Positions 1 through 64,000 are shown, counted from the stretch's first letter. The stretch is 64,000 bases of DNA from Octopus vulgaris (GCA_951406725.2 OX597816.1:149172001-149236000); one strand, 5' to 3'. The notes: generated by a model not told the origin, from the sequence alone. Made by a program: numbers and translations.

Positions 1-600
1 TTCAGGCCCTACAGGTTCAGTTTTCACACTGGGAACAATAACAAAACCACCAGAAGAATTGCCACTTTTACTAGCATCTAGTGAAGCAACCTCAGATTCC
101 TGTCCAAAGACAGCTGCTGTATCTTTCTTAACTTGTGCTAATTCAGCCTCAGATATCTCTTGTTTAACATCAATGACTTGTGTAGTGACAGATGGAGTAG
201 AGTGAGATGAAACTGATGTGATGGATGATGAAGGCAGAGATGGTTGAACTGTTGGAACTGTAATACTGGGTGGGTTTGATAGAATGGTCTGCATCTGGCT
301 GAGATCACCAAATACAGTAACCGTTGAAGCTGGTTGATGAGGTATTGTGCTTGGAAGACGACTATCACACAGTTGTTCAAATTCTTTCATGTCCAAACGT
401 TTTGCAATGATTTTTAACTGATGTAAAATATCAGGATCAATATCTAATAGCCCATTGTACATATATTCAGCAAAGGCATTTAAAGCTTCTGTGCTAACTT
501 CTTCAGGAAAGTTCACTTGGAGAAACTTGTGAGAGAGGATATCTGTACTAAATACTGACAACAGTTTTGGACACACAGCAGACAGGACAACTTTATGCAC
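1..600 (-). CDS. Constant exon C3: C-terminal part of BTB/POZ domain plus S/T/P-rich region (continues beyond window)
   Basis: Not in ORF track. Acceptor tgtgtttcag| at 602-601, then 200 stop-free codons: VHKVVLSAVCPKLLSVFSTDILSHKFLQVNFPEEVSTEALNAFAEYMYNGLLDIDPDILHQLKIIAKRLDMKEFEQLC..., matching BTB motifs HKxVLSA, F.EYMY.G.L and A..L.M..L...C. Also carries SUMO-consensus VKQE and VKTE. Confidence 0.93.
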   Translation of the reverse strand, partial: MHKVVLSAVCPKLLSVFSTDILSHKFLQVNFPEEVSTEALNAFAEYMYNGLLDIDPDILHQLKIIAKRLDMKEFEQLCDSRLPSTIPHQPASTVTVFGDLSQMQTILSNPPSITVPTVQPSLPSSSITSVSSHSTPSVTTQVIDVKQEISEAELAQVKKDTAAVFGQESEVASLDASKSGNSSGGFVIVPSVKTEPVGPE

Positions 601-958
601 CTGAAACACAAACACAAGGAATTGATTAGATAGGAGGGAAATATATGAACGGGAAACAGAAAACATAAAAAAGTAAAACCATTTGCATCTCTTAGAAATA
701 AAAATACATTCCTTGGATCCTATATGGTTTTATAAAGTATCAGTATTGCAAATAAGTTAATTCAATAAATCATATTGATTTCCTTCAAGAAAAAGGTCAA
801 GTCCCAAAGGAAGAACTTGATATTCTAATATTATTATCTTTGGAAGATTAGTCTGATGGAAAACATGCATTCTTCATTTGTTTCATGAAATGTTCTTTAA
901 ATAGTCAGTAAATTAATTTGTAGCCAGAGAATATTAATGTTAAAAGCAATATACCTAC

Positions 959-1262
959 CATCACAGTAGATGAGCCATTACCAATACCAGCATCACACAA
1001 CTTTCCACTTTTCCACAGAGATGCTAGATTGGACATGACACAACGCTGATGATCAGCAACAACAAATATTCGTTTTTCTCGTGGTCGAGGTTTTTCCACA
1101 GGCTTCGGTTTGGGTTCACTTATTTGAATTGGTGGAGCTAACACTTGAACAGGCCTTGTAATATTTTGAGAAACCTGGGCCACACTCATATGCTGCTGGA
1201 CTGGCATTTGAGCTTGTAGTGTTTTTGCAGCCATCTGAGATACCTGAGTGTTAACCATTTGT
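959..1262 (-). CDS. Constant exon C2: Q/P-rich linker and N-terminal part of BTB domain
   Basis: Acceptor ttaatttcag| at 1264-1263 and donor ATG|GTAGGT at 958. Encodes ...HQRCVMSNLASLWKSGKLCDAGIGNGSSTVM, which joins in phase 0 to VHKVVLSA of C3 (BTB L..L...G.LCD motif). Confidence 0.92.
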
Positions 1263-1349
1263 CTGAAATTAAAATTTACATTTTAGAAGATAATCACAAG
1301 TGATGTTCAAAATTAAGAGGCGAAAAGACCAATTAATCATCATACATAC

Positions 1350-1585
1350 CGCCGGTCATCAAATCGACGATTTTCGAACCTCCGTTCCTGGAAACGCTGC
1401 TCTTGGAAGCGTTGCTCATCAAAGCGTCGATCATCAATTTGTTTTTTCTGAATTTTTGCAGGTGAAGGTTGAGGAGGTGAATCATCTGGAATGAGCACTG
1501 GTGCAGACGAGACAGTGGCAGCAGCAATCTTTTTACGCCTAGGGTTCTCAGGCTTTCCGGAATATACTTGATTTGAAGGTCCTGC
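1350..1585 (-). CDS. Constant exon C1: common phase-0 acceptor exon with basic/charged linker
   Basis: Acceptor tctttgtgtttacag|GCA (phase 0) and donor CG|GTATGT at 1349 (phase 2, completed by the first A of C2 to give R-Q-M). Encodes AGPSNQVYSGKPENPRRKKI...DDRRFDEQRFQEQRFQERRFENRRFDDRR; PRRKK is NLS-like. Confidence 0.88.
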
Positions 1586-2207
1586 CTGTAAACACAAAGA
1601 GACTATTTGAAGAAAAATAACAATTGCAATTTCAGGGTGTACTAAAATGCCAAAAAGTTAAGCTTTGCCTTGCTTCTCTGAATGAATATGTCTATTTTGC
1701 AAAACAAACTTATAATATTCTTGTAGCCACTCATTCAGTAAGAAATAATTAGTTTAAACTATTATAACCCCTACTCCTATCCATAGCTAGTTTCCTTACC
1801 CAAGACCTCAAAGTTTTTTGAGAGATACTGACCCAATAATCTGACTGGTACTTATTATTAAACTAGCACTGAACAAACTACTTCACTATTCTTCACAGAA
1901 GATACACCTTTCCGTGAACAATTGAACATAAAACAAATGAAAAGTATAAAAATAAAATGTTGGAATAAAAAAAAAAAAAAAGTTTATATCATAATCAAAA
2001 GCGAAATAAATTAGTCAACATCCATAGTGCAATGGAGAACAAATCTAAGTTCCACGCCAGCAAATAAAAAAGAGAAATAGTGAGGAAAAAGCAGAGAACG
2101 GTAACTCTCTAAACAATAAAAATACATATATATGCAAGTTGTCTTAAAAAATATGTTAATGTAAACTGAAGTCGACCATTCTTAATATCCTAATTGAAAT
2201 TACTTAC

Positions 2208-2567
2208 CTTTAAACTTCGTGCTATACACTTGGAATGTAGTTCAGATTTCTCGTGCAGAAGAAGTTTACTCTTCCTATGGCTGGATCCCAAGTCAACACT
2301 ACCTTGGACCCAAGCATTTTTTAAAGCAGACCTAGTGCTGGAGAACCAATACTTCTGGCAGACAGCACAGCTAGCTAGCGGATTTTGGTTTGGACGCAAC
2401 TGTACCAGTAACCAAGGATAGGTTCTCTGAAGCTCGTTCAAAGAACTAAGCGACGATTTCGTATACCTAACACTTTTGGGGATGAAATGAACACTACTTT
2501 TCTGTGCCAGGACTCCAGTGCTATACGTCGTGTTGTTATTAAATAGGAAACTCTCTGTATTGTCCAT
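2208..2567 (-). CDS. Variable exon V1: TTF-type (hAT-transposase-like) zinc finger
   Basis: ATG 2567; motif YPWL...CAVC...W..G......L..HE.S..H..C; donor AAG|GTAAGT, phase 0. Confidence 0.8.
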
Positions 2568-2838
2568 TTTCCTTGAATTCAAATTCAAAGACAAGCGTCC
2601 TATATAAAAATTGTTTCTGAGTTAAAAGGTAATAGAAGTGTGTTGATTTGTAACTGCCATCTTCCTATCAACCCAAAGATTTACACAATAGAAAATAAAA
2701 ATGTAAAAATAGATAAACACAGCAGCAATATTACTGAGGATTGTGTCAACAGAATTCGAATTACGACGTAAAGAAATTATTAAATTTCAATATTTAAGCT
2801 GTCAGATGAATATTATATATATATCCTTGACCACTTAC

Positions 2839-3291
2839 CAGGGGCAGTTTAATGGAATCGATCAGCGGCAAAGGTATGTGGCGAATCGTATTATCACAAA
2901 CATTCCGAAGCAACCCGAACGGAGAATCTCCGTGGAATTCCGAGGTTGCAGTGAGGGTGGAGCTGGACGTCACACTCGTCTCATTCTGAAATCTGACACT
3001 GTTGACGACAGACTGTTCAAATTTGTCATCGGCATGAAATGTACTAGAAGCACTGCTACTATTCGACCCGACTTTCTCCGGTAGATTTGTTTCACAAAAA
3101 TCCTCAATGCCCTTAACACAATTCCTGATTCGACTTACAATCAATTTCACGATAGGCTCATTAAATCTGTGCTTTGAACGTAAATGCTTCGGTAGGTTGC
3201 GAAATTTACTTAATACAGTTAAACACGATCGAACAGGGCACTGAACACTATCCTCAGAAGATGGGCCCTTAAACTTCCGAACAAAAACCAT
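2839..3291 (-). CDS. Variable exon V2: single C2H2-like zinc finger plus S/T-rich tail
   Basis: ATG 3291; CPVRSC-x12-HLRSKH; donor CTG|GTAAGT, phase 0. Confidence 0.75.
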
Positions 3292-4247
3292 CACAAATTA
3301 CAAAATTTGCTTACTGCAGCGGGCGATTGAAGCTTTACTTATTGAATGAAGAGAAAGGGTGGAGGGAGGGAAAAGCAAGCTACAACTGAATGGTGAAAAA
3401 CTAGTTTGATGAAGAATGGAGGGAAGCAAAATTTAAAAAAAAAGTGTAGAAGCTGGGACGGGCGAAATGGGGGGGAAAAAAAAACATTGAAAATATTCCA
3501 TAAAAACGAGAACATTAAAATGGCGGCAGGTTGTGAACCTCGTGTTCATGAATTAGTGAGTGGGTATGCTATTAGATAGAAAGGAAGACTAGTTCTCTAG
3601 TAGGAAGACTGCTGCTGTGACTTGTCCACTGGCAAAGAAAGCAGTCTGAACAACCAATACGATAAGAGATCAGCTACTGACGACCGACCAACAGAAAGAT
3701 ATTAGAAAGGATATGCTACCTACATCTCATCATTGTGACAAACCTAACACTGAGACAGGCCAGACGTCGACCACAATAGCGAAGAAAAGTCCTTTCAGCC
3801 CTAGAAGGTGAAACTCCTTTAACAATCTTACGCACAGCCGAACAACACAGAAAACAACTTGTAATCCTACGCCAACTGGCAAGTGCACGAAGCTGCAAAG
3901 GGACCAGAGAAAAGCTTTGACAACGCCGCACTATATAATTTAATTAGTGATTTTATTTCCAACCAAGTTGTGAACAAACCCACCTCTGATCGAAATGGAA
4001 TAGCTCCGCTGCTCCCGAATATAATAAAACAACTCTTCTTTAATTTGCGAGCACGTCATTTTGTATGTAATTATATATACACGCACACAATTATTAAACA
4101 AAATTACAAAAAATGAAAGTTTCATGACAAAACAAAAGTACAAAAACAAATTGTCATAAATATTTACAAAGCAAGAATGTGATACTCTTTAATAACATTA
4201 CTAAATGTGAGAAACTCCTGAAACTGACAATATTTTTACCAACCCAC

Positions 4248-5249
4248 CTGCAGTATATATGATATTCCTGATTGTTGAGGTAAGTCCATATTATAAATCC
4301 TTAACGTAGAAATTTGCGTGGTTCGCAGACAATGATTTGTGTAGATCTGAGAACAACCAGCCTCTCGAGAAATCTCTTTCATTCGAGTTCCGAGAGTGTT
4401 TTTACCAATTGGCATGTTATCATACCATGGAACTTCATCTGGATTCACATTCTGCTTACTTCTTTGCCAAAAAGCATCACAGAGTGGATTTAAGAGGTTA
4501 ATGTATTTTTTGAAAGAAGTCAGCGGGCACCATTTATTACCGGGTATTTCATACATGCGTACTTCATTAACAGGAGGATCCCCATTGCTGTTCAGCTCAG
4601 CTCCAACCCGAAAGGTAACATATTGCAGACCCTGAGGTGATAATTCAATACTGAAGTCTCGTTTCGAAATCTCCCGCAGATTATCGCGCCCGCGGCTACA
4701 CATATGCAACATTAAATCCATGAATACCTTATTTTGCAAACCTCGTGGCTTGTCCTGATCCAGAGCGGACGATAGCATAATTTTCTGTATATCTTCCTCT
4801 GTAATAGGATTCTTACGCTTAATAGCATCCTTGCCCATTGCCCTCAATTTCATCAAAATTACACTGAACACTTCATTGGCTTCAATGAATTCGTCATCTG
4901 TTATAATATCTAAATGCGACATTCTTTTGAAGTGACGCTGTAAACCGTAACGCAACGTAATCATCGATTTCCGAGCATAGAGTTTACCACTAACTTGGCG
5001 CACCTCTGTGTAGAACTTTTGCAGAAATCGGCTTAATTGTTGAGCAGGCTTTTTTTCTAATAAAGATAAAGTAGTGTGTTGAGTTCTACAATAGTCCTTT
5101 AGAATTTTGACAGCACTTTTGATAATATTTTGAGTTCGTAACGATTCATCTAAATCGATAAGCTCCACACCGTTCATACGGTTTGGAGAAACACATGCTT
5201 TAGGGTCTTGTGCTTCTGGTTGAGAATCGCCTAGGCTGTTGGACGCCAT
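4248..5249 (-). CDS. Variable exon V3: Crypton-derived tyrosine-recombinase-fold (DUF3504-like) domain
   Basis: L..FY.EVR...G..Y...S...LRYGLQRH, GLQNKVF, SRGRDNLR, CP...FKKY, FWQR, WY...PIGKNTL...M..IS..AG....YTNHCLR; donor CAG|GTGGGT, phase 0. Confidence 0.88.
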
Positions 5250-5767
5250 GTTGAGTGACAGAATTAAGAAATAATTATATAATGAAATCTATGAGCATTC
5301 AGCAATAACTGCTAGCTTTTGACTAAATATAGAACCATACAGTGCAATAAAATAGGCTGCAGTAACGTGTGTAAAGAATTACGTTAATGATACTATGATG
5401 CAAAAGCTGTTTCCACTCTCATATTTCTCCCACCGCCATTTTCCTGTATTACACTTATTTCCCATGGGGAACAGTAGACTATTGACCGACAGTAGTAAGT
5501 CCACGTGAGATGCACTAGCCAATGAGAACATCCGTAGTCATAGTTCTAGCTATTACACTATTACATGGCAACTAATAGCTAGGTAATAGCAAGAGGAAGA
5601 TCGAGAATTAAGCTACCGCGAAACAATATATTTCGAGAAGCCAATTACTGAATAGCAGACTCATCCAATCGAAAAAATCGCAGCAGATGTTACAATGTCT
5701 CTAGAAAACAAAAACAAACAATACAAAAGAAAAAAAAATAAATTAAAAAAAAAAAGAAGCAATTAAC

Positions 5768-6040
5768 CTGGTAACAATCCAATAGCGGTATAGGGTCAGG
5801 GTGCTCCGGAGTGGGGCCGTTCTTACCAATAAAATGCAAGCTACATAAATATGTCCATGGTTTGATGTTATTAACAGTGAAGTATAATCGACCGCAAGCT
5901 TTCACCCAACGCTGACACTTCGTTAAGTCTTTGTGTGGTTTAGGGAATGGAATCCACCAGACCCCTTTCATTTGCGGTCGGTTAGGATAGCGGCTATCAC
6001 TTTTACAGGTACCATAGCTACAATGACGATTGGCCGGCAT
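5768..6040 (-). CDS. Variable exon V4: complete THAP domain
   Basis: ATG 6040; CSYGTC...PFPKP...RW...C.R...LCSLHF...PDPIP; donor CAG|GTTAAT, phase 0; ORF tail beyond donor is poly-T intron-like. Confidence 0.87.
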
Positions 6041-9000
6041 TTTGTGTATAAAGTCGTTAAAAATTATTTCGTCCTTCCACAAGATTCATCAGAACTTCAA
6101 CAGATCCATGCAGCAATGCGAAAAAAAAAAAACCCAGTCATTTATATTCACTATTAAATACATCAAACATGTTCGAAAAATGCTGGTCACGAGGTTGAAT
6201 AGAATATTATGCTGTCTAAAGTAAATGTAGCACTAGGATTTATTGATTACCGTCATCTTATGATAACAGTAACTTCCCGAAAAATTGAACAACAGCGAGT
6301 GTTTTCTAAATCCTATTTAATTTTTAGCACCAAGTTAAATATACAGAGTAAAAGTGAGGGAAAAAAAGCAGGCACTTCGCTTTGATAAACTGCTTAAGTA
6401 TGGCGGACAATAATCGTAGTCACAAACATAGTTTGTCCTATAAAATATACAGTAATCTACACATGATAAAACCTGCTGTTAACTCAGATATAGCAGCAGC
6501 AGTGGAAGGAGGGAAATAGCAGCAGCAGTGAAAGGAGGGAAAGAAGTCAGATAAGGAGAATCAACACAGACAAGTTCAACACGTCAGTAATAGCAGTAGC
6601 AGTAGTGAGTGTTACCATGGCAACGACCAGGAAAAGAGCTCTCTTTAACATGTCCTAAATACAGCAGTAGATTCAGGTAGTGGGCAATGCAAGTTAGCTA
6701 TTTTACTATTTTTTTTTCTGTCTCCATCGTACAATAGCAATCATGACAGCAAAAGATAAGACAGATAAGCCACTGGTATTCCATTGCACATAAAATATTT
6801 GAGGACAATGATTCTAAAATGCATTAATGGAAAAATATCTATACTTTTCTAGTTCTATTTAAAGACGCCTTGTACTCTTCAGACACCACATCAACACAGA
6901 ACCCTTATTTCTGACCCCATATCAAAACGAATATTTGCGGAAGAGGCAGCTCTAGTAATCGCCCCTCTTTAAAATATATAGTAAGATAATTTAGAAAATA
7001 TTGTGAAAGGATGCCAACAATGAGAACAAAAATAGAAAAGAAACTTTTTGGATCTTGCAACTACAAAGTTACCCCCTTATCGAACATGCTTTATGGGCTC
7101 AAGGAATAGTTACTATGACCTTCCTATTATCCAAGATTCATTCTTAGCACAGTATGATTGTATCGAAGTTAGTAGATCAAGCAAACACACAGGTACCCAA
7201 ATTTAGACATCGGTAGGCAGCCCTCATGATTAAGCTACAAGATGGTGAGAAAGAGTAATGAAAACAATAGAAAAGTGATTGGCTTCCTTTCGAATCAATA
7301 AGAGGGACTGAAACACTTGCCAGTAAACGAAACATTCTCAATACTGGCGTTGCAGAGAAGAATCGAACCATGGCACATGTACCGGATGATTATGAAACAG
7401 TTTGGGAGGGGTTGGTGGGTGGAGCCTCCAGATTAATAGAAATTAGACAATAAAGATCGAGGAAACAACATAACGTAAAGAGAAAATATCTTAAATATTG
7501 AAATAAATCAGTCACTAAATATGGTGTATAGCGATTGCTAACTAGCTCACCTGCAAAAGTAGCATAGACTTTTTTTTATTTCCGTAACTTACTCCAGCCA
7601 TTCGTTTGCAAGAACATTACAACCTCTGAAGTTGGATTATAAACCATTTTCACTCTAACTTGCTCAAACAACCGATGCATCCTTGAACTTAACATAAAAG
7701 ACGAGGGAGCCTTTAGTCACTTAACGGTACTAGAAATAAGTCAAACCCCTCCAACTCCACTCCTACAAAAAAAAAAAAAAAAAACTTGACTAATACAGCA
7801 GTGTAAACTTCAGGCAATCTACTGTATGTGTTCCCGACGGGGACACACACAGGATGAATCCCGAACGAGATTCGTGGAAAATCCGAAGGTGAAGACACCA
7901 ATGCAATTTGGTTAAATGCCAATATAATTTAATAGTGTATTTAATGCGGAATTCGACCAATGCCAGAAAGAATTAGGGGCGACACACAAATATATATATA
8001 TCCTAGATAGTTTGTACCGCACGCTTGCAGTGTGACTGAGTAGATGCTTGTCAGTAGCAACAGTTACTGTTCTACTGCATCCTGCCACCCTTGATGTTGA
8101 ATAGTGGAAAAAATATCAAGGGTAGCAGTTTTGTGATGGGAGCTGAAGTATATTATCAAAATATTCACAGTTCTTCAGATTAATGAAAAACAGCACACGC
8201 CACTTAACCTGAAGTGCATATACAAAGAAAAAATTTATATATAAACATCTTCCAACTCGGCACTGTCGATATATACACACCAAACTACACACAACTAATT
8301 TTCTAGTTAGCAATAAGTTTAGTATGATTTTACAGTTGATTAAAAACAGCCGAAAGCTGCTGTGGTAATTATTGCAGTTACGTGTTTTAAAGATACATTG
8401 ACTACATTGTCTGATGAGGGAGAAAAAGATTCAACTTACGATACATCCTAAAACCCCGAGTATTTATCACTTATTTACATCTATATTTATAACAAGCTTC
8501 AGCAACGTGAAAGAATCAAAGTTTCTTTCGGGCTTTTATTAGTGAGTAGCTTGTTTTCTCGCTGTCAACTCCACATAGTGATGAGTGATTTGAACAAAAC
8601 TATAATCCTTTTTATAAAATGTTTCAAAATTGCAGTAGAAAAAAGAGCGAGGCACTTTATAGTGTTAAATAAATTGCTCAAGAATGTTCGAAAATTGTAG
8701 TGAGAACAACGTATCTTCATACACGACAAAACAGGAGCAATAATAAAAGGAGCGAAGCGAAAGAGACATGTTCAACAATGTGTAATAAATAAAAGTAATA
8801 TTTGCCCGAGGTGGTGGAAGTACTGAAAATTAATCAGTTTAAAAATTTCTACAGTCAATTTCAAATGTTTAAACAATACTATAATACAATAACATTTACC
8901 GATTTGTCTAAGTGCAAGCTAGGAAGGTATTTCAAGTGAATGAACTTTGAATAGGGTAATAAGAAAATGATTTGGAGTGGTAAAGAATGTCCACAGCGAG

Positions 9001-10180
9001 TAAAATATTTAGCTTGGTACACATACAAGTGTTACACTTCAGTTGTCGCTTTTATGCAGTTGTAAACTTCTTAATCAGCTGAAAACTTTCCCATTGTTTT
9101 TCAATATATTCATTTTAACATAGGATCCAAATCGGGATTACATACTACCATGCTAATAAAAATCATAGAATATAATCACTAATCGCTGTGGTCCAGGTCA
9201 GTGCTTATCACCCAGACCTTTGATAAGATTCCAGACATGACTGACTGTTCCATCTTTTATCAGTCTAGGATTACATTACCGGCCGTACACTCACTCAACA
9301 GAATACAAGAATATCTTATACAATACATATGCCATTCAAATTCCATAAAGAAATTATTGCATTTCCAATGTGTATGTTTTAAAAATAAATTTTTAGTCAT
9401 AAAGAAAAACTTTTGTTTATATTTTGTTGTTTAATCCGATATAATAGTAACTCAAATTCTTTTTAGATGATACACAAAATTTGTTTCGAAGCCGACAAAA
9501 TAACCAGAATCATCACTATTATAATTGGATCAATCAGTTGACGCGTTATTTCGGAGATATAAAAAAACGTATTTAAATGTGTCCGGACCGTATTTTGATT
9601 TGTGTTTGACTGTAATAGGAAGAATTGCTGCATTATGTAATTTGAGGAATGCTAGGAGCAGCTCAGAAGACCATGTAGAGAGGTTCGTAGGCTCCATTAT
9701 CTCAATGTATTTACAGGTAAATGAATAATGGGAAAGAAGCTTTCATTACTTTACCACTTGATTTAATTGAATATAAAAGAACAGGACATCGCTGTTACAC
9801 CGCTTTAACATATTTTAATTATCAAAATACAGCCACGAAAAGATAATGATGAATGTGAGAAAGTACATGAAATGTTTGGAGCCTTTCAATTATTGAACCA
9901 ACCATTAATTAGTATTACAGTTTGAGCATTAACAAAACCGTCGTTTGCAAGAAGTAAATAAAACGGGGGGAAAAAAAGAATGCCAATAAATCAATGCGCA
10001 TGCGCATGGAAGGCAAGCCAAGTTCCTACAATCGATAAATCAAAAGAAAAATAACGGACGTTCGTAAACACTTGTAATACCTTAAATATAAGAATCGCAG
10101 ATATATGCAGAACATGAAATATTAAGTAGAATCCAATAAAGCCTAGTTTAAGACACTCAAGTGGTAAAAGAAAAACTTAC

Positions 10181-10555
10181 TTGAGGAAAAGGAAACTCCA
10201 AAGAGGCCTTACCACCGTAGAGCTTTTTACTGTCCCGAGCTCTAAAATCAATTTTAGGGAAGATAGTTTGAGCAGGTGTCCATGGGAAAATAGTCGGAGC
10301 AGGATTTTGAGGGCTAGGTTCTCCATCTTTAAAGTGTCTAGAGCAAACGCGATGATGTTTTTTTGGACCATCCCAGTTGTCACCACGTCTTACTAGCTGC
10401 GTCCAAAGTTGACGCATGTACGGATCTTTCTTGGCAGTAGGAAAGGGGAAAAAGCGAACACCACGCATGAATGGATAGAGACTAACATTCTTGCGCGAAT
10501 CAGAGCTACACTGATGTACAATACACCACCACTTTGCTTTGCAAGTAGGCTCCAT
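10181..10555 (-). CDS. Variable exon V5: complete THAP domain
   Basis: ATG 10555; CIVHQC...FFPFP...W...VRR...VCSRHF...PAPTIF; donor CAA|GTAAGT, phase 0. Confidence 0.88.
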
Positions 10556-10907
10556 ATTAAAAAAATATAAACGACACGAACCAAGCTCGTTAGGCAACCC
10601 TCCAAAAAGGCAGGCAAACAAGAATTTATGATAACTGAACGGAAATGACTATGCCTTCACCTATCACGTGACGTCCAAGGGATGCAACTGCAGAAGTCGT
10701 TGACAAAATATGAAAAAAGGTAAGCAGCTAAAATATGCAAAAAATCCGAAAGTAAAAAAATAAAAAGAGAAAGAAGAAAGTAAGATATTTCTTGATTAAG
10801 AAATGTAAATATGTACGGAATGACGAAACTAAATGCGCTCGCTAAATTTGTAATTAAGCCAGGTTACACCACACGACTGATACAAGTGATATTTTTATTG
10901 TATCTAC

Positions 10908-11219
10908 CTCAAACCGCTTCTTCGCTCCTCGTCGTCGGATTGGTTTGAAGTTGAAGATAGTTGGTACTGCGTCTGGTTTAAGTCGTTGTTTTATTTTGAT
11001 GCCCCAGTGCTTGAGTAAATTAGGGTCTTTTACATAGCAGTTTCGTTCGAAGTGATCCGAACACAAACTAGAGTATTTCGAAGGTATAAATTCTGCCCGA
11101 TTAACCCTTGATAACCATTCCTTGTATATATGTGGCCTTGTGTTGCTGTCAGGAAAGCGGAAAAAACTTCTACCACTTCCTGTTTGATTACTGCAGCCGA
11201 AAGCAACACAGTGAACCAT
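10908..11219 (-). CDS. Variable exon V6: complete THAP domain
   Basis: MVHCVAFGCSN...FFRFP...W...V.R...LCSDHF...LKPDAVPTIF (AVPTIF box); donor GAG|GTAGAT, phase 0. Confidence 0.9.
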
Positions 11220-11310
11220 TTGCTACCATTTAAATTTCAATCCTAAGAGTATGGACTTTTTCCTCTTTTTACATGAACTGCTGTAAATCTTAACTAACAG
11301 AGATCACACA

Positions 11311-11382
11311 AAGATGGCGACAGTGTTGCACTAAAGTGATGTCATTACGAGTGGGGAGGTTACTCCGGAAATATCCGGAAAC
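11311..11382. promoter_or_regulatory. Putative promoter of V6 (YY1-like and tandem ETS-like sites)
   Basis: AAGATGGCG at 11311 and TCCGGAAA twice at 11364-11381, in the ~260-bp gap between the V7 donor and the V6 ATG. Confidence 0.5.
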
Positions 11383-11481
11383 GTACGAAATATAGTTATG
11401 GAAAAAAAAGGGCAATCGTTGAAATTATCATGCAAACATGCAACGATATTTGACAATTAAACGAGTATTAATAGAATTTAC

Positions 11482-11934
11482 CTTTAACGAGTCAAAGCCT
11501 GTACGCTTTAGAAAATTGTTTAACCATCCTTTACTAGCAACAAAAGGTTCGTAACTTCCACCCTGGTCTTGAACAAAACGCTCGTAAATAGCCAGTGCTT
11601 TGTCTCTAATACATATCGTGCTGAGGCTAAACTTCTTGTTTTGTAGTTGTTTCGTTATCCAAGTTCCAAGCACCTTTTCAGTTCTTTTTAACGCGGTATT
11701 CCCTATCCTGGTTACCGTTCCAGAAAACGGCGAGGAGTATAACACGGAATTCTTTATTTTGTCAGCATTTTTTTTGATTGAACGAATAGTGCTCTCTCCA
11801 ACACCGAACATACGGCCTAATGCAGATGAACCTTCTCCAGATTCGGCCCGTCCAAGAATCTCTAACTTGGTCTCTAATGTCAAATAGGTTCGTTTACGTT
11901 TTGTGAAAGAACTAGAAGCCGAACGTAAAGACAT
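11482..11934 (-). CDS. Variable exon V7: CENP-B/pogo-Tigger bipartite HTH DNA-binding domain
   Basis: ATG 11934; KRKR..LTLETKLEIL...G......LGR.FGV.ESTIR.IKKN and E..L..WI...I..KA...F.ASKGWL..F..R; no DDE domain; donor AAG|GTAAAT, phase 0. Confidence 0.88.
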
Positions 11935-14941: not shown

Positions 14942-15277
14942 AATGACATTATCAGGATATCTCGTGGCACTGTTGTTTACAGCGTTGAAACGCTTCAGTC
15001 TTTGTTCGGTAACAAAGTTAGATTCATCCTGTGGCCTTGGCGAGAATATTGTAGGGACATAATCAATACTGGCTGTATTACGAACGGGGTATCGGCTGTG
15101 GAAATGCAAGCCACATATACGGTCGTTGTCGCTAGCAATCCAATTTGGCCTGTTTATAGCATTTACCCACAACTGACGCCGATGAGGGTTTCGCGGGAAT
15201 CTATGCAACCGCAAGCCGAGCTCAGAATTTTCTTTGGTAGCCCTTACTTTACAACCTACCACAACACAAGATGGCAT
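14942..15277 (-). CDS. Variable exon V8: complete THAP domain
   Basis: MPSCVVVGC...LHRFP...RR..W..AINR...RICGLHF...DYVPTIF; donor ATT|GTAAGT, phase 0. Confidence 0.89.
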
Positions 15278-16623: not shown

Positions 16624-17016
16624 CAATTTTTTTCTTGTTAGCAGCATGCGATCCAGAGTTCGTGAAATGCATCCATCACTTACAAGTGGTTTTTGTGGCA
16701 AATTCAATCTCATACCCTCATTTATCTTCCGCAAGGTGATAGATGGGTTGTTGTTTATTGCTTCGTACAAGTAGGCACGCATCTCATCATCAACTTTCAC
16801 ATTGCATCTACCGCCTTTGAGTAATGCTTCTCGTTTGCCCGTTTTTATATAGTCTAAAATTATTCTGCTTGCAGTCTTTAGATTAATGCCCATGGATTTA
16901 GCAAAGTCCTTGTAGTTCGATCCACGATCATAACAATCTATGAGTTGATTGCGTGCGGCGTTGGACACGGGCGGCTTTTTTGTTCCACGTCCGCTGGATG
17001 CGGCTTGCCGGGGCAT
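16624..17016 (-). CDS. Variable exon V9: IS630/Tc1-like transposase N-terminal HTH domains
   Basis: ATG 17016; VS...R..LI..Y..G.....A..MGIN..TA..II..Y..TG......GGR...K......L...I..NP.ITL..I......VS...ISR.L.....T.KKL; stops before any DDE; donor TTG|GTGTGT, phase 0. Confidence 0.8.
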
Positions 17017-17053
17017 TGCAAAAATCACTCTTTATCAAAGCTGTCACGCAAAT

Positions 17054-17855: not shown

Positions 17856-18032
17856 CTTAGCAACATTGCCAGTACTAGCACGTTTCTGTCTTCTCCTTAG
17901 TGCAGACGATCTCATTTTTTCTAAACGTCTGCTCCTTTTTTCTGCAGTTTCTCTCTCTCTCCGGGCCCTCTCTCTCAATGCTTTTGCAGCACGACGTTCC
18001 TCGTCGGTGGCATATTTCTTTGGCCTTCCCAT
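17856..18032 (-). CDS. Variable exon V10: basic helical domain (GRP motif plus STPR-like ET.E.R..RL..MR repeat)
   Basis: ATG 18032; MGRPKKYATDEERRAAKALRERARRERETAEKRSRRLEKMRSSALRRRQKR; donor AAG|GTAAAG, phase 0. Family assignment tentative. Confidence 0.68.
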
Positions 18033-25377: not shown

Positions 25378-25473
25378 ATCTATGTATCCACCTGAGGAAT
25401 GGAGAACATTCATTGGTCTGACTGGTAGAGGATCAGGGTGGTCTCGTGTAGGTCCATTGCCACCAACAAAATG
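25378..25473 (-). CDS. Shared internal exon S: C-terminal half of THAP domain (32 aa)
   Basis: Not in ORF track. Acceptor attttctttcactccag|, 96 nt encoding HFVGGNGPTRDHPDPLPVRPMNVLHSSGGYID, donor GAT|GTAAGT; phase 0/0; closely matches V4 HFIGKNGPTPEHPDPIP. Confidence 0.9.
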
Positions 25474-28947: not shown

Positions 28948-29124
28948 TAAGAAGGAATAACAAGGTTTTTTATAATGACGAGCGAGTGTGGCTTTAGGGA
29001 TTGCGAACTTCTTAGCAGCTTTTCTAATACTGAGACTTCCAGACAGTACTGCTGATACGGCAGAAACCATCTGGCTAGATGACCACTTCCCATTGTCTGT
29101 TTTCCGGACATACGACTGAACCAT
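28948..29124 (-). CDS. Variable exon V11: pipsqueak-type (psq) HTH
   Basis: ATG 29124; MVQSYVRKT....W....M..AV.AV..G.LSIRKAAKKFAIPKATL.RH; donor TTA|GTAAGT, phase 0. Confidence 0.85.
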
Positions 29125-30080: not shown

Positions 30081-30880
30081 GAGTGTGGGCGCACGAAAAA
30101 GTAGCCTGGATTCAGTAGCGTAGTGTATATAGAGAATTGATTTTACTCGCTTGTTCTTGTCATCCACTTTTAATTGCTGTACACATGTGAAATGAGTTGG
30201 ATCCAACTTTAGACTTTTCAACACCCGCTGGCATGTCCTCCTGCTTATGTGAGACTCCTGCGCCAATTTACGTGTTGACTTGTTTGGACTTCGAGTAATC
30301 CTTCGGCGAACCTCCTGAATAACTTCCGGCGTTCGAACTGTAGGGTCTCTTGGTTTGGGGGCGTTGTGCACTGACCCCGTAGCGCGCCACTTCTTAACCA
30401 ACATTTGTATCGTTCTTTTTGCCGGTAAGCCTTTACCCGGAAACTTAACTTCAAAAATTTCACGCGTTTGCTTAACAGAACCCGTTCTCACATACGTTTT
30501 CACAATCTCCATCCTTTCTGCTATTGAGTACGTCATTTTGCAGAAAAAAACCCAGAGATGTCAACTCAACGCAACCATACAATCAACTAATGTGGTGGGG
30601 ATAACGTAGCAAACAGTCGACTAGTACGCCATCTTTGATCAGCAGTTACACGCGGTCGAAATAACACAATGACACATGCAAACGAAAGGCCGAATGCTTT
30701 TTTTGCTTGGGTAAATTTATTTCTGTATTCACACTATGCTACGGAACCCAGGCTAATTTTTCAGTCGAAATAACACAACGGCACTTGCAAACGAAAAACG
30801 ATATTTTTCACATGTTTTATTTTATTTTTGTATTTACACTACGCTACAAAATCCGGGCTACTTTTTCGTGCTCCATCCTG
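30081..30880 (-). mobile_element. Internally deleted mariner/Tc1-like element containing V12
   Basis: Imperfect TIRs: gcacgaaaaagtagcctggattcagtagcgtagtgta (30091-30127) vs tacactacgctacaaaatccgggctactttttcgtgc (30835-30871); ~108-bp direct duplication 30655-30762 / 30764-30868. Confidence 0.8.
30147..30536 (-). CDS. Variable exon V12: mariner-like transposase N-terminal HTH (DUF4817-like) domains
   Basis: MTYSIAERMEIVKTY..TGS....F..KFP....P....I..LVKKW..TGSV......R..TVRTPE.I..V...I.RSP.KSTR.LA....IS...C.R.LK; no DDD; donor CGA|GTAAAA, phase 0 (weaker site). Confidence 0.75.
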
Positions 30881-38896: not shown

Positions 38897-39094
38897 CTTT
38901 GAACAGACATATTTATTCTGATCGATCTTGAATACATTTAGTTGAGAATACGGCCGACCGCATGCTTCAATCCATCGCAAACACTTTTCTAGCTTTGTAC
39001 GCGGTTTAGGAAAAGGAATGAAAAATCCACCGTTTATTCGTTCTGGGTACCTTTCGTCGGCGTTACACAAACCCCACACACATCGGCGCACCAT
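38897..39094 (-). CDS. Variable exon V13: N-terminal half-THAP
   Basis: gccATGG start; MVRRCVWGLC..DERYP...FIPFPKP....KC.RW..ACGR...YVCSK; donor AAG|GTAAGG, phase 0, just before the missing HF. Confidence 0.88.
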
Positions 39095-41122: not shown

Positions 41123-41329
41123 CTTCGAGCAGACGAAGTGATGCGATTTAATTTTATTAATATTCAGCTGATAGTAAGGCCTGCAACATGCATCAAGCCA
41201 ACGTATACAACGCTCCAGAGAACTCTTAGGCTTAGGAAAAGATACAAAAAACACGTTCAGCATGTGAGGTTTATGTTTGTACCGACTGTCACTACGACAA
41301 GTACCCCAAGCGCAACGCTTAGTTACCAT
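41123..41329 (-). CDS. Variable exon V14: N-terminal half-THAP
   Basis: MVTKRCAWGTCRSDSRY...FVSFPKP....RC.RW..AC.R...FVCSK; donor AAG|GTAAGC, phase 0. Confidence 0.88.
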
Positions 41330-42640: not shown

Positions 42641-42847
42641 CTTTGAACAGACGTAAAGGTTTTTGTTTCCGTCAACAATGTTAACGTTCAGTTGCTCGGG
42701 AATTCGACCGCAACGTTCAATCCAACGAAGACATTTGTCTCGTTGTCTCCGCGGTTTCGGAAACGGTATGAATGTAACACCACCGAACAGACGTTCAGGA
42801 TAACGATCGTCTGTATTACACAAACCCCATGCACAACGCTTCACCAT
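42641..42847 (-). CDS. Variable exon V15: N-terminal half-THAP
   Basis: MVKRCAWGLCNTDDRYPERL.GGV.FIPFPKP....KCLRWI..CGR...YVCSK; donor AAG|GTAAAT, phase 0. Confidence 0.88.
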
Positions 42848-44898: not shown

Positions 44899-46056
44899 CT
44901 GGTCCTTCTCAGAATCATTCCGTATCAATGTTACCTGCAGGTCCAGAGAACCATCACCAGAATTATCAATAACCTGAGCATTCGTTGAGCTAGCTAAAGG
45001 CGTTGCACCAGAGTTTGAAGAATGATTTGATTCACCCTCTAAGATTTTACGCTCGAGACGAGAATCTTTAGCATACGGCAAAGTAAAATTGTAACCCCCA
45101 GATAAAACGGTCTTATTGGAACCAGTTATTCTAATGGAATGGTTGCTGTACTTTTGTGAGAGTGAACAGGCAAGACTAAGTTCAGGCATAAACCTTTGTA
45201 AAGTATTTCGACCTACAGCAATGTTTCGATACCAGACTGAGCCTTCGGGCGAATAAGGAGATATCGGTCTTTGCCATAATCGGTGGCAAAGCGGATGGAG
45301 TTTGCTCTTATATTTTTCAAATGATTTCACAGGACAGTTTGGATCATTGGGCCTTTCAACGATATATGTTAATTCTTCAATGTCAATTGTAGACGGACCT
45401 GTTGCTTGGATGTTAGAACCAGAGCACACTGATACGGTCTTGGTCTTCAAACTGCGTGGGGACTGTTCTTCAGCTTTACACATATACTTATACCCGGTCT
45501 GCGAATCAACGCGGACTTGGAAAGTCTTTTTAGTCATCTCTACCATACTCTGGGGACCTTTTCGGAAGAAATATAACCGGATCTCAAATTGAACTTTATT
45601 CAGTAAGCCTAAAGGTGTATTGATGTCAAAATAAACAGATGAATATAACTTCTCTAAATCTTCATCCAAAATAATAGGATGATGGGTCACTTCACCTTTA
45701 CCACTAGTTTTCAGCTCATTAACAGTTTCTTTAAAATGAGCGTTAGCTTCTTCAAATATTTCATCTTTAATGAGATCAAATGTTTTGAGATACGGTGGAA
45801 GCCGAAAGTATCGGTTAAGTGCATATCGGAAGCCTTCCAAACTGGTCACCTTATACTGATCACCATCACGCTTTCGTACATCTCGGTAAAATAATATCAG
45901 CAGCTCACTCAGTTCTTTGGCGTCCAAAGATTCGAAATCTGTGGATAAACTCTTATCTTTTAAATAATCCCGTAAAGCACGAGCCGCTTTTTCATTGGCA
46001 CGCCTTGTATTTTTAGGTACGGCCTTATGTTGCCCATCAACAGCAAAAGTATCCAT
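44899..46056 (-). CDS. Variable exon V16: Crypton-derived tyrosine-recombinase-fold (DUF3504-like) domain
   Basis: FY.DVRKRDG..Y...SL..FRYALNRY, TP.GLLNKVQF...LYF.R.G, CPVKSFEKY.SKLHP....LWQRP, WY....VG.NTL..FM..LS......YSNHSIR; two phase-0 donors, CAG|GTAACA (exon end 44935) and CAG|GTAGGT (exon end 44899). Confidence 0.88.
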
Positions 46057-50943: not shown

Positions 50944-51294
50944 AGTAATCCGTTTGTCATCCTCATTAGTCTGTTTTTGTGGTAAAGATCCTTTAGTTTG
51001 AAAAAGAGTTGGTATTGCACCAGGTTTCAATTTCATTCGTGGTAATTTGCAGCGGTAGCCGACCTCCAAATACCGACTTTCGAAATGGCGCGTACAGATT
51101 CGAATCTTGCACCGTATTTTTGCAATGTTTGAACATGTCATATCAAGAAAATTCTCCATCTGGCCAGAGTCAATACCCAGATTCTGGGCCCAGATCCGAC
51201 ATTTTTCTCGGTCCTTCGGAAAACAATGCAACCGAATATGACGAGGTAATCGACCGTCGTGGCTGGTGCAACCAAATGCTATACAATGTGGCAT
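50944..51294 (-). CDS. Variable exon V17: complete THAP domain
   Basis: MPHCIAFGC...LHCFPKD......W...ICTRHF...LKPGAIPTLF; donor ACT|GTAAGG, phase 0. Confidence 0.88.
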
Positions 51295-54934: not shown

Positions 54935-55135
54935 CTTGGTACAAATATATGTTGCTCTGCTGATGCGATTAACGTTGAATTGATAGGAAGGTCTACCACA
55001 GCACAGAATCCATCGTAGACATTTCTCTAGGTTTTGTTTGGGCTTCGGAAAAGGTATGAACTGAACACCGCCCGCCAACCTCTCGGGAAATCTATTGTCA
55101 GTGTTACATGTACCATAACAACACCGTTTAACCAT
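54935..55135 (-). CDS. Variable exon V18: N-terminal half-THAP
   Basis: MVKRCCYGTCNTDNRFPERLAGGVQFIPFPKP..NLEKCLRWI..CGRP...YICTK; donor AAG|GTATAA, phase 0. Confidence 0.87.
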
Positions 55136-58110: not shown

Positions 58111-59205
58111 CTCAAATATCCCTGAAAGTGAAGAATCAGCTGAAATCAATCTTTTGAAATGCTGCTGCTTGGCATCAATTGGTGGCTTCTCAGAAGAGAC
58201 ACTGTCCAACTTTGGCCCAGGTAACTGGTGAGTGATTACTTTCTGTATGCTCTTCAAATCTAATTTATCTGAGACAATGAGACTGCTGAGTGTGGCACGA
58301 AGACATTGGTTGGTGTATGAATGCGAGAGGTGTGCTTTGGATGATATTTCTCTCATAAAGTTAGCTATACTCTTGCCACCATGTGGTTGCAATGTGTACC
58401 AGGTAGGCGAATTTGTTACATCTCCAAAGCGGAGTTGACAAAAGAACTTGTCACTTTGTGGGTGCAATCTTGATAAATAGTTTGCAAAAATTTTAACAGG
58501 ACACAATGCTTCGTTTGGAACTTCATGTATCATCCTACAACTCGTGTTACTTAATTCGGTCGGAATATTTTCGCCTGTGTTGACAATACCATCAGTGAGG
58601 ATTATAGATTGCAAACCAGACTTCTGATCCTTGTTAACGCGAAAATGATGTTTCGTTAATTGTGAGAGGCATTTATAGCCGTTACGACCAAAAAACAAGA
58701 CGATGTCCATAAAGACACGTTTCTGGAGCTTGTTTGGATTATTCAGATCACTGTTACACCAGCTGTAGGCTTTTTGTAAATCAGCAAGAGTTATTGCAGA
58801 TTTGGCATTCCCGATAGCTGAGAATTTTTGTTGTAGACTATAGGAATGTTTCTGCCACACTCTGTTAGCCTCTAGGAAATAAGGGTCATTTAATATATCG
58901 ATGCCCCTCTTAAGTATGAAGCGATAAAGGCCATAACGAATACCTCGTAGACCGGCGTGTTTATACCAAGTACCGTCATCTTTACGTAAATCAGGGAAAA
59001 AACTACAAAGATAATTTTTCAAGCGATGCTTGGCTTCCATATCACCACGAGCAATTTGCGACAACAACTGATGGAGTCGTAATTTTTCTCCTTTAGAAAA
59101 AATATATTCTCCAAATTTCTCGCAGGCACTGACTTCGGCGCGCTTTGTGGAATGGGCCTCAATATTGGCGGCGGAACTCTCATTCTGTGATTCTTGAGTT
59201 GCCAT
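58111..59205 (-). CDS. Variable exon V19: Crypton-derived tyrosine-recombinase-fold (DUF3504-like) domain
   Basis: ATG 59205; FF.DLRK.DG.WY....L..IRYGL.R, P..LQKRVF.DI.LFFGR.G, LCPV..F..YLS.LHP, WY..QP.G...I.NFM.EIS..A.LS..YTNQCLRAT; donor GAG|GTTAGT, phase 0. Confidence 0.87.
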
Positions 59206-61134: not shown

Positions 61135-61167
<33 letters not shown>

Positions 61168-61170
<3 letters not shown>

Positions 61171-61362
61171 GGATTGGGGGAGGGCACTACTAGGTTAAGA
61201 ATTTCTCTCCAAAAGGTTTTTGCAGCAAAGGTCTAACACACACAAGTGTGTACAAATATATTTAACATAGTGTTACACTCAAAATTTGAAAGACCTCAGT
61301 TGCAAAAACTTCTTGGAGAGAAATTCTCCTTAGCCCAGTAGTGTCCCCCCCCCCCATCCATA
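61168..61362. repeat. MITE-like inverted-repeat element
   Basis: ~65-bp arms tatggattggggg...cactact...aatttctctccaa...tttttgca...aggtct and the complementary agacct...tgcaaaaa...ttggagagaaatt...agtagtg...cccccatccata. Confidence 0.75.
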
Positions 61363-61550
61363 GAATCTATAAGAATTTCTCTCTAGAGACAGTCTCCGCA
61401 GTGGAAATCTTTCTACTTTTGAGTGTACATAAACATTTTAAATACAATTATACACAATTATATTTCAATCATTGCTGTTTAGTTTGCTTCTGATTAATAC
61501 ACACACATCTTTTCTCCCATATATATAATAAATATGATATGTGTGTGTGT

Positions 61551-61700
61551 TATTTAAGACACTTTGATTTGGCTCCATGTGAATTAAAGTTTTGCAGGCC
61601 TGTTAACACAGACCCATCTTATTCAGGATTAGTTAACTGAAGTCTAAATAAGCCAGGTTTCTGTAAAGAGGCATGGAACCAAATCAAACAGTTTTAAATA
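61551..61700. repeat. Small MITE-like element with ~29-bp TIRs
   Basis: tatttaagacactttgatttggctccatg / catggaaccaaatcaaacagttttaaata. Confidence 0.6.
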
Positions 61701-63803
61701 ATAATATATTTAACTCCTACTAAATGTGTTGAATGCCTTTTTCTTTCATTTGTCCACTAATGTATATATGAAAATCCTCATAGAGGTAAATGTGATCATG
61801 TAATTACATACACATAGAATAGAAAATTGGACACTGGATGTAAATGTAAGAAGTTTGCCATTTGAAGTTCTAAATTTTAGGCTTTGTATAGCTAGTCCCT
61901 CTTCCCAGTTATATTAAAGAAATGCATGCTATATGATACCTATTTCTATATGCACAAAATCCAAGTACATTTCTTAGTATATCAAGCACATTGGACATGT
62001 AGCTAACAAGTTTGCTTTGCAATTATGTGGTTTTAGGTTTGTTTCAACTTCATGGCAGGCAAATATCATGTAACAGTCTAAGATTGAGTAAAACCTTGTG
62101 AATGAAATTGGATCATATGGAAACCATGTGGAGGCCAGCAAATAGACTGTATTTCTGTTTTGAGGTTCCAGTTCTATCTCACAGTGCATGTTGATTTTTC
62201 AAGTCTAAATTTATGGTACAAGTTAATGAGTAGGTAGTTCCATTAATTGGAAAACTGAGACACATTTGTTGAAATCTAGAACATATATGAGAGAAGGTGA
62301 GTTAAAATATAAAATAACTAAGAAACATTAAGTTTCTCAAGATTTGATATGTTTAGCAAAACTCATCTATTGATGATGCTTCCTATCATCATTTAACGTC
62401 CATTTTCCATGCTGGCATGGGTTAGACGCTTTGACTGGTACAGGTAAACTATGGAGCTGCACCAGGCCCAAGTTGTCTGTTTTGGCTTGGTTTCTCCGGC
62501 TGGGTGTCCTTCCTGACACCAACTACTTTACAGAGTGTACTAGGTGTCTTTTACATATCACCGGCACTGGCTACAATTCACTTAGCTTGACGTGTTTTCT
62601 CAAGTACAGCAAATCGCCAGAAGTCTCGGTCACTTGCCATAAGCCTGCATGAGGCTCAACAACTGAAGATCATATTTCATCATTTTGTCTCTCCTATTAA
62701 AACAAGTACATGCGTTTGAAAGTTAAAAGTGAAGCTCAAACATTCTTTGAAAATATTTCTTACATATATACTTACACAAAAATAATTTCAAATGTGAGTT
62801 ATTAATGGTGTTCTTTATTAGCATATCCCATAAATTGATGGCTATTATAATCATTATTTAGATATCCATATAATTATAAGTTTTACACCTTTACTCGCCT
62901 TAATTATGGAAGGAAATTGAAGAGATAATTAAAATATTTAATAAACAATGAAACAAATTTTGTGTTATGTAAAAATAGGAACATGAACACTTTAATAATC
63001 GGTTGACTTCCTGGTATATGATAGTACATAACATAGCTCTTATGTACTGAGTTAATTCAACCAATGCGTTTTTCGATAAAATTTTTACAAAAGGTGGGTT
63101 TTCGAGGGTATAGATTACAATTAAGTTAGAATATAGAAAAAAAAATTTGGAGTTTCGAATCTTGGTTATTATCAAATTCCTTAACTTTAAGATCCCCCTC
63201 CCGATGGTTTAAACCATCAATGTTATGTAAACAAAACACTTTAGTGCTTCCAATGGTTGTTCTAAATTCTCCTGGACTTAATTGTAGAGAAACAATGGCA
63301 CGCGTAACGCTTAATGTAACGCTCTGGCAGAAGGCTATCAAAGCTCTAGATGTGGAAAGAAGAAATTGAGATTTAAAGTAACTGCTGCTAGTATGTTAGC
63401 TACTTTCCTTTCTCAATCAATTTCTTTCCATTCGTTTATTCAGTCACCCACTCCTCCACTTTATCACAAATTAACAACACAATATCTGCTATTATTCTTG
63501 GCGGTTCCTTTAATGACACTAATTTTATCGACCCCCAAAAGAGATGAAAGGTTAAAAGTTGATCACTGCGATAATATATTTCAAGTGCTATTGTTTGCAT
63601 CAAAACTGACATTGTTAACTTGAAAAGTAGTTATCTTAATTATACTATTGTTACTAGCAACAGCAATAAGAGTTTCTAACCCATCCTATAAAGAGGATGC
63701 AAGAGTTAATGGTGTTTGCCTTTTAAATGATTCAAAGAGAATGTGTGTAAAAGAAAACAGCAATATTTAAAAGGTGTTCACAAAAAATAAAAGATTTCCT
63801 TAC

Positions 63804-64000
63804 GTCAGTTGGGCTGTTTAGTTTCAGTTTGGTATACCATTTTGGTGTGGGGACATTGCTCGTCTGGAATATTGTTGGTATGGCATTCGGCTTCAGTAAG
63901 ATACGTGGGTTCTGCATAAACTGGAAGTTCTGTTCGAAACAATGAGGTTCAAAATGCAGAGTGCAGATTCGAAATCGGCGCCGTATGCTCTGGTCATCCG
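63804..64000 (-). CDS. Variable exon V20 (5'-truncated by window): THAP domain
   Basis: Open frame from window edge DDQSIRRRFRICTLHFEPHCF...LLKPNAIPTIF; donor GAC|GTAAGG, phase 0. Confidence 0.85.

Follow-up and report, generated by a model that had tools for sequence, protein, structure and literature searches.

The 64,000-nucleotide stretch of Octopus vulgaris DNA analyzed here (OX597816.1:149172001-149236000, hereafter the window) is the 3' third of an approximately 186-kb Octopus gene, NCBI LOC106877732 (O. bimaculoides)/LOC115209932, whose isoform proteins are already among the NCBI models. Its minus strand carries three constant exons (C1 to C3) encoding a BTB domain and, upstream of them, an array of alternative 5' exons, each with an open reading frame (ORF) for a DNA-binding-type domain. 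The locus is probably a single BTB gene with some 30 alternative 5' units; each would have a promoter of its own and be cis-spliced to the nearest downstream shared acceptor. A first-pass annotation of the same DNA had already proposed many 5' DNA-binding exons on one BTB module; the layout, three contig junctions, gene models, reading phase, CpG content and selection among paralogs bear out that proposal, and its wiring is replaced by three collector exons and four tiers, a scheme that, together with the other junctions, is taken from database models.

All 20 minus-strand ORFs that had been proposed in the window are present (Table 1), and nine of them pass the Pfam cut-off alone. We count about nine domain types, close to the eight or so estimated at first. 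Ten exons are THAP-type (six pass the curated cut-off alone and four half-THAPs fail it), and the CENP-B_N plus HTH_Tnp_Tc5, HTH_psq and DUF4817 exons also pass. The three DUF3504 exons fall under their cut-off (20.2, 29.2 and 29.6 vs 29.7 bits), and HTH_29, zf-C17orf113 and an aberrant C2H2 finger are weak Pfam matches. Exon 17856 has no Pfam match and gave only unnamed Atlas matches at 0.84; it is called STPR-like solely by likeness to paralog exons. All 18 donor positions named in the first-pass annotation directly precede GT, nine variable exons have a GTAAG donor, and the acceptor at 1585 is normal, with a pyrimidine tract and CAG before it.

The earlier statement that these exons lack transposase catalytic cores does not hold for the three DUF3504 exons. 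What they encode is the Crypton tyrosine-recombinase domain, truncated ahead of the catalytic Tyr region. Judged by the R-H-R-Y catalytic set of active Crypton recombinases, none of the three is intact: 4248 retains the Arg and HxxR and stops about 25 residues later, and 44899 and 58111 have one changed residue each. The DUF3504 family is described as of Crypton origin (PMC3212892). Exon 4248 has no solved-structure match, and a weak search finds no long fused relative outside its own cluster.

As had been expected, the array continues beyond the right edge of the window, to about 182 kb (positions above 64000 carry the window numbering on into adjoining DNA), with ten more domain exons upstream that Pfam identifies as four THAP, two CENP-B, two Brinker, one FLYWCH and one psq. 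An iterated six-frame search of 264 kb (2873 ORFs) finds relatives of the variable ORFs on the minus strand only, apart from a single low-complexity plus-strand match (E 0.0009). Screening ORFs up to 264 kb by composition, with Pfam run on seven candidates, gives no further variable exon; not every ORF was scanned, and short or odd units may be missed. Past about 186 kb the DNA is CpG-rich throughout, which we take to mark where the methylated gene body stops, because octopus methylation is located on gene bodies (PMC9476566). A Tc5 helix-turn-helix (HTH) fragment at window 40020-40274 and a plus-strand DDE_3 fragment at 34207-34425 were treated as debris. The exon order on the O. bimaculoides scaffold is the same.

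Table 1. Exons of the BTB locus, with the evidence for each (P and XP numbers denote database protein models; positions above 64000 lie upstream of the window).
Feature	Position	Strand	Evidence and remarks
Constant exon C3	1..600	-	second BTB half and Ser/Thr-rich tail; extends about 460 nt past left edge; Pfam BTB
Constant exon C2	959..1262	-	Gln/Pro linker and first BTB half; joints in 4/4 runs
Constant exon C1	1350..1585	-	acceptor at 1585 in phase 0; entry point shared by tier 1 and J1
Variable exon, weak zf-C17orf113-type finger (tier 1)	2208..2567	-	joint to 1585 in 4/4 runs; Pfam E 8e-4, under cut-off
Variable exon, C2H2-like finger (tier 1)	2839..3291	-	model P0006; weak Pfam
Variable exon, Crypton-type DUF3504/QRICH1 (tier 1)	4248..5249	-	joint in 3/4 runs; models P0001, P0032, P0033
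Variable exon, complete THAP of J1 subtype (tier 1)	5768..6040	-	Pfam THAP 32.2 bits; candidate donor, no junction seen
Variable exon, THAP (tier 1)	10181..10555	-	Pfam; ortholog model XP_014782214 links to C1
Variable exon, THAP (tier 1)	10908..11219	-	Pfam; model P0051
Variable exon, CENP-B/pogo double HTH (tier 1)	11482..11934	-	joint in 3/4 runs; model P0005; Pfam
Variable exon, THAP (tier 1)	14942..15277	-	Pfam; best donor in phase; candidate donor, no junction seen
Variable exon, Tc1/IS630-like paired HTH (tier 1)	16624..17016	-	model P0004; weak Pfam HTH_29
Variable exon, basic STPR-like repeat (tier 1)	17856..18032	-	paralog exon 43 kb downstream; candidate donor, no junction seen
Collector exon J1 (length 96 nt, phase 0-0)	25378..25473	-	common to all upstream exons; opens with the His that completes the half-THAPs
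Variable exon, HTH_psq (tier 2)	28948..29124	-	P0039 and XP_014782223 link to J1
5' end of Tc1/mariner-type transposon, DUF4817 HTH ORF, ATG 30536 (tier 2)	30147..30762	-	candidate young capture, candidate donor
Variable exon, half-THAP, three Cys (tier 2)	38897..39094	-	P0046; 18.6 bits alone, 25.8 joined to J1
Variable exon, half-THAP (tier 2)	41123..41329	-	P0045; no THAP match alone, 27.1 bits joined to J1
Variable exon, half-THAP (tier 2)	42641..42847	-	P0049; 21.3 bits alone, 27.6 joined to J1
Variable exon, DUF3504 (tier 2)	44899..46056	-	P0003, P0040 link to J1
Variable exon, THAP (tier 2)	50944..51294	-	P0054; Pfam
Variable exon, half-THAP (tier 2)	54935..55135	-	61% identical to 38897; in-phase donor; no junction seen
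Variable exon, DUF3504 (tier 2)	58111..59205	-	P0002, P0035
Variable exon, THAP (tier 2)	63804..64000	-	P0053; starts at 64163, beyond right edge
Collector exon J2	96069-96118	-	50 nt, phase 1-0
Collector exon J3	150210-150249	-	40 nt, phase 0-1

Splice junctions, reading phase and the split THAP

Junctions were taken from the joints listed for contigs of four runs (of 21), each from a different study, compared over window 1-20000. The runs were classed as RNA by guess (14 of 20 candidate runs guessed RNA, none recorded as RNA); given that both constant introns, including the one spanned by the 600/959 joint, are spliced out in all four runs, the contigs count as transcripts. Donors 2208, 4248 and 11482 are joined to 1585 with CT..AC ends in four, three and three of the four runs, respectively. 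Database models, among them 15 of the 32 members of the largest protein cluster, back 14 of the 20 window exons, with 10181 added from the supplement of PMC10027918; with 2208 included, 15 of 20 have some junction support. Two apparent matches to models, 2208 to P0005 and 54935 to P0072, are chance three-residue matches and were left uncounted.

The models depart from the direct joining of every donor to 1585 that had been envisaged, as none of the exons upstream of 25.5 kb is joined in this way. Every model of an exon upstream of J1 instead passes through J1, and 25378, formerly listed as a variable exon, is this shared internal collector exon. At the proposed alternative donors 44899/44935, models use 44899; use of 44935 is not seen in them. 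Tier 1 (2-18 kb) would join C1; tier 2 (28-64 kb) J1 and then C1; tier 3 (100-140 kb) J2, J1 and C1; and tier 4 (166-182 kb) J3, J2, J1 and C1.

This wiring makes a prediction about reading phase. Because J1, J2 and J3 measure 96, 50 and 40 nt, their acceptors are in phase 0, 1 and 0, so that phase-1 donors are predicted between J2 and J3 and phase-0 donors elsewhere. When the donors in the second half of each ORF are ranked with a score matrix, the top one fits its tier in 26 of the 32 ORFs (3.5e-8 in a binomial test against a chance of 1/3): phase 1 is found in 5/6 tier-3 ORFs and phase 0 in 21/26 of the others, while 300 control ORFs split 103/108/89 over the three phases.

The collector exon J1 also contributes to a domain. 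The half-THAPs at 38897, 41123, 42641 and 54935 stop after the third Cys, and J1 opens with His-Phe. Three half-THAP plus J1 models score 25.8-27.6 bits, over the Pfam THAP cut-off of 23.9, and the THAP C2CH set (three Cys, one His, and the conserved Pro, Trp and Phe) is present for 38897, 41123 and 42641 only once they are joined to J1. Oyster, brachiopod and hemichordate relatives carry the same joined motif, which heads a DDE_Tnp_4 transposase in four of the 11 long relatives scanned; the intron position is shared with relatives, and 11 of 109 classifiable relatives stop at the same residue, like the unspliced exon. In the Octopus genome the J1-type THAP is found only within this array (five matches). 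Because its relatives are THAP-DDE_Tnp_4 proteins with the same joined motif and break residue, J1 is probably exon 2 of a captured THAP transposase gene, of which exon 1 would then have been copied.

These observations bear on two alternatives that we hold to be very improbable. One sees the ORFs as separate single-exon genes or as remains of transposons, and the fusions as annotation artefacts; several database proteins do stop just past the donors, and the gene models are automatic. The direct joints from four studies largely refute it for 2208, 4248 and 11482, and the match of tier to phase, the incompleteness of the half-THAPs apart from J1 and the confinement of the array to one strand argue against it more widely. 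The other, to which we assign an equally small probability, is that the mRNAs are trans-spliced; mod(mdg4) provides the precedent (PMC13490949), and contigs do not separate cis from trans. All units, however, lie upstream on one strand and use the nearest acceptor, and stepping-stone exons suit long cis introns.

Two further observations concern the proximal contigs. Just past the stop of the 14942 ORF (window 14854), one contig of run X5 carries at least 255 letters unlike the window, and very high-copy transcribed repeats at window 15849-15993 and 19065-19327 dominate the read tables.

CpG islands, selection and transposon origin

In the 600 nt upstream of 31 start codons the median CpG observed/expected ratio (o/e) is 0.98, compared with 0.20 in 2000 background windows (P 1.6e-15). 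Thirty of the 31 start codons lie in CpG islands, and islands cover at most 44% of the span; the sole exception is 182119, whose ATG directly follows an acceptor and which the models place as an internal exon. Upstream of C1, J1, J2, J3 and one internal second exon, the o/e is 0.08-0.38. The pattern fits one promoter per variable exon. A YY1-like word occurs in 12 of 31 units and in 8% of background.

A competing scheme would place one promoter upstream, with a non-coding leader, and treat the variable exons as mutually exclusive internal cassettes or as products of read-through and donor choice. Contigs that run continuously over 2207-4276 and 4247-7172 would fit it, as would the units that have two exons and the short exon 168151, which joins both a neighbour and J3 in models. 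The islands at nearly all starts and the CpG depletion at true internal exons count against this scheme, as do models that start at each variable exon, wiring that follows the nearest acceptor and, more weakly, contigs of the low-depth run X5 that stop 118-214 nt upstream of four start codons at which no joint is listed. We regard it as distinctly unlikely.

Islands are also found away from recognized coding units, at window 7401-9000, 12901-14400, 36201-37100 and 52901-53400. Contigs cover those at 7-9 kb and 13.5-14.2 kb, and a strong donor at 7551 is found with no Met ORF. Fourteen stretches over CpG islands lacking a known unit contain one phase-unmatched Met ORF (60636) and no clear new unit. 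Such islands possibly represent non-coding first exons.

Selection was assessed on ten pairs of paralog exons. Three have measurable synonymous divergence (dS), with nonsynonymous-to-synonymous ratios (dN/dS) of 0.06, 0.12 and 0.15, the last for 17856 and its paralog exon; the other seven are saturated at silent sites, with proportions of nonsynonymous differences (pN) of 0.22-0.41. Purifying selection on the captured part is thus found for three paralog pairs and not for 30147. Among contigs, all three coding differences in 4248 are synonymous, and four of the six coding differences listed overall are silent. Ortholog exon models are 85-100% identical in another Octopus and 81-96% identical in Argonauta. 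In two of seven comparisons (P0059, P0063) the tail past the donor shifts frame in other octopods beside an exon that is 100% identical; the P0037 tail also shifts, at an exon identity of 94%, and the remaining four tails are alike.

Derivation from a transposase is traced for 30147 and the J1-type THAP, and other units are assigned by Pfam family only. At 30147, a 226-nt leader and the ORF match a dispersed transposon family at 73-84% DNA identity, and the likeness ends 5 nt past the GT. The window copy is stop-free; all 13 other copies examined have stops in that span, as do 26 of the best 30 other protein matches, and the GT is present in 10 of the 12 copies covering the donor. We therefore designate 30147 a candidate young capture, a 5' end that is intact although the transposon family it belongs to has decayed. 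At the other extreme, long matches to the CENP-B exon 11482 reach only 32-36% identity in the nearest genome copy. The captured domains differ greatly in age.

The most upstream exon in O. bimaculoides models encodes a THAP from a family with 23 matches scattered over the O. vulgaris genome, most at 72-84%, and no copy in the 264 kb examined here; judged from the model only, it is a lineage-specific gain or loss. An ORF at about 152 kb (L012:7687-8523) is retained as no more than a candidate unit, being a multicopy Tc1 remnant (copies 81-89% identical) with its best donor out of phase; it lies on the sense strand 1.7 kb upstream of J3 and may be a capture in waiting. In the intron between tier 2 and J2, at about 88 kb on the minus strand (L006:3358-4314), a 319-residue open frame encodes 'SLDRDLEKW'-like repeats with no Pfam match.

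The BTB module and its sister genes

Database proteins match the BTB region at 98-100% identity, and those relatives that carry a name come from Octopus and Argonauta. The domain is long-form; its closest solved structures are NS1-BP (a Kelch-type BTB, the best match, E 1e-9), ZBTB18, SLX4 and BCL6, with the Drosophila CG6765 BTB last of 28 solved matches. Pfam finds no BACK or Kelch domain in the fused models. A homodimer model of the BTB scores 0.83 (best control 0.00), with 96% contact agreement and a predicted local distance difference test (pLDDT) of at least 85; the mark used is reached by 7/16 animal pairs and 0/30 eukaryote single chains. Solved BTB dimers exist, so this result may reflect structures that the predictor had memorized. 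The proteins most likely dimerize through the BTB, and because it is common to all isoforms, mixed dimers would be expected and dimer specificity may be combinatorial. C1 (window 1350-1450) also encodes a repeated RF(D/E/Q)(E/D)(Q/R)R motif.

The Kelch-type best match is among the points that would suit a more sceptical account, according to which splicing is real, most units are low-level output of transposon promoters that a long methylated gene tolerates, only a few isoforms have any importance, and the main function of the BTB is that of a scaffold or ligase adaptor. Young transposon remnants in the array, the lack of significant selection on 30147, the five donors lacking a junction and the unspliced proximal contigs point the same way. 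We consider this account unlikely, given the low dN/dS ratios, silent-site saturation with frames kept open, the identity of ortholog exons, the frame-shifted tails beside identical exons and the lack of BACK and Kelch domains.

The BTB gene has relatives nearby. Eleven tandem BTB paralogs lie downstream (contig C3:148965094-149142103, genomic coordinates) and five more 2 Mb away (contig C3:151272732-151381939); most of those covered are preceded, on their own strand, by one to few exons of STPR-like, CENP-B, FLYWCH, THAP, Brinker or ZSWIM3_N-like type. Model P0014 spans two BTB paralogs, and an exon with a complete IS630/Tc1-type DDE_3 domain (L049:3479-4654) lies upstream of a BTB paralog, to which it is fused in P0087. 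A second octopus BTB locus (LOC106879774/LOC115220336; P0163, P0171, P0243-P0259) has five alternative N-termini, three FLYWCH-like, one CENP-B-like and one DUF3504, on a shared C-terminus of 505-577 residues. The same design recurs, at smaller scale, in further BTB genes of cephalopods. Logan contig proteins P0085, P0095 and P0236, which are DUF3504-BTB, THAP-BTB and FLYWCH-like-BTB, cluster with Acanthosepion records, and cuttlefish-clustering contig proteins have THAP or FLYWCH-like starts on one 698-residue C-terminus, which suggests that the design extends to cuttlefish. In the abalone Haliotis, P0134 and P0157 carry the same THAP subtype fused to a BTB, possibly independently.

Interpretation and comparison with known systems

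In the model that we propose for this gene, promoter choice would pick the DNA-binding module and splicing to the nearest acceptor would add the BTB. Each mRNA would then specify a single DNA-binding domain of transposon type, followed by a linker, a long-form BTB and a tail of low complexity. The array would have grown as DNA transposons inserted in sense orientation upstream of a shared acceptor, each keeping its 5' end and promoter, using an in-phase GT and losing the remainder, with some units later duplicating locally. The proteins would dimerize through the BTB and act as chromatin regulators, with targets set by the promoter that fires.

Several observations weigh against this model. 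The junctions come from contigs of guessed-RNA runs only; the short side of each variable joint is 23-27 letters, and with coverage confined to window 1-20000 the J1-J3 junctions lie outside it. The listing leaves 43 other joints aside; among the joints and models listed, 5768, 14942, 17856, 30147 and 54935 show no junction. Unspliced contigs cover 2207-4276 and beyond, including 4247-7172, and upstream promoters may thus read through neighbouring exons, with unspliced single-exon products possible. The ORF list for the phase test was drawn partly from gene models. A k-mer scan of 31 units finds no promoter motif common to most of them. Two transposon remnants in the array are also CpG-rich (0.81, 0.90), and octopus transposons too are described as unmethylated (PMC9476566); the islands therefore support promoters and do not prove them. 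At 30147, comparison with the family majority gives a nonsynonymous-to-synonymous ratio (pN/pS) of 0.57, which does not differ significantly from 1 (P 0.28), and the donor is not the best-scoring one in the ORF.

More tentatively, and at somewhat less than an even chance, we envisage the cephalopod BTB family as a 'transposase-domain trap' that keeps recruiting transposon 5' ends as promoter and DNA-binding modules, giving one gene a library of about 30 specificities under turnover, arranged by splice phase, whose members would combine in BTB dimers and be selected in each cell individually. If so, the locus would furnish combinatorial transcription-factor identities for octopus cells, and might hold a memory of past transposons with which to bind and control them, as KRAB zinc fingers do in tetrapods. 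Should isoforms mix, thirty modules could pair in as many as 465 ways, a source of regulatory diversity that lends itself to testing. Octopus protocadherins have been widely discussed as a source of diversity.

The 'Octopus THAP/CENPB-BTB factors' of PMC10027918 are this same locus, counted there as an expansion of separate factors. Its main text is without the word 'isoform' and calls the BTB a transposon source, and in its supplement nine distinct proteins among 10 of 11 rows carry the one LOC number of this locus. Because several counted octopus transposon-derived factors are isoforms of this gene, factor counts are to be corrected. We found no description of the locus in open-access literature text, a search with supplements outside its scope, and a description elsewhere is possible. 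Two features that we did not find described are the setting of each tier's reading phase by collector exons and the use of a shared exon to complete a zinc finger.

Drosophila mod(mdg4) resembles the octopus gene in that one BTB is common to about 30 isoforms with different DNA-binding-type ends and its exon clusters have their own promoters, its 31 isoforms arising, as described, solely via trans-splicing from independent promoters (PMC13490949). Its BTB is N-terminal, and its variable exons lie 3', in part on the opposite strand, and are trans-spliced (PMC13490949). Those of the octopus are 5' and on one strand, and the BTB lies after the variable part in all models. The octopus locus also differs in its about nine unrelated domain types, with FLYWCH and Brinker in addition upstream, and in its collector exons. 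We infer that it arose independently of mod(mdg4). Drosophila lola is a comparable shared-BTB system.

In their layout, clustered protocadherins, UGT1A and chelicerate sDscam are similar, with tandem variable first exons that apparently each have a promoter and are spliced to constant 3' exons (PMC3333863, PMC2819257, PMC9258826). Clustered protocadherins are further characterized by a promoter element common to their units and by stochastic choice in each cell. As described, their variable exons are paralogs of one kind, unlike the unrelated domains found here. To our knowledge, none of these loci has interspersed collector exons with different phases or a domain completed across a junction.

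Host-transposase fusions of vertebrates likewise capture transposase domains by alternative splicing, often through a transposon splice site (bioRxiv 2020.05.07.082677), and KCTD1 isoform b has a Crypton DUF3504 exon upstream of a BTB (PMC3212892). Those cases are described as one capture per gene, or two in KIAA1958 (PMC3212892, bioRxiv 2020.05.07.082677), in contrast to about 30 on one acceptor system here. The octopus locus unites variable first exons, a shared BTB with many DNA-binding ends, and transposase capture, each known separately. Since it holds older and younger captures next to one another, it makes the origin of transcription factors from transposons traceable exon by exon across cephalopods.

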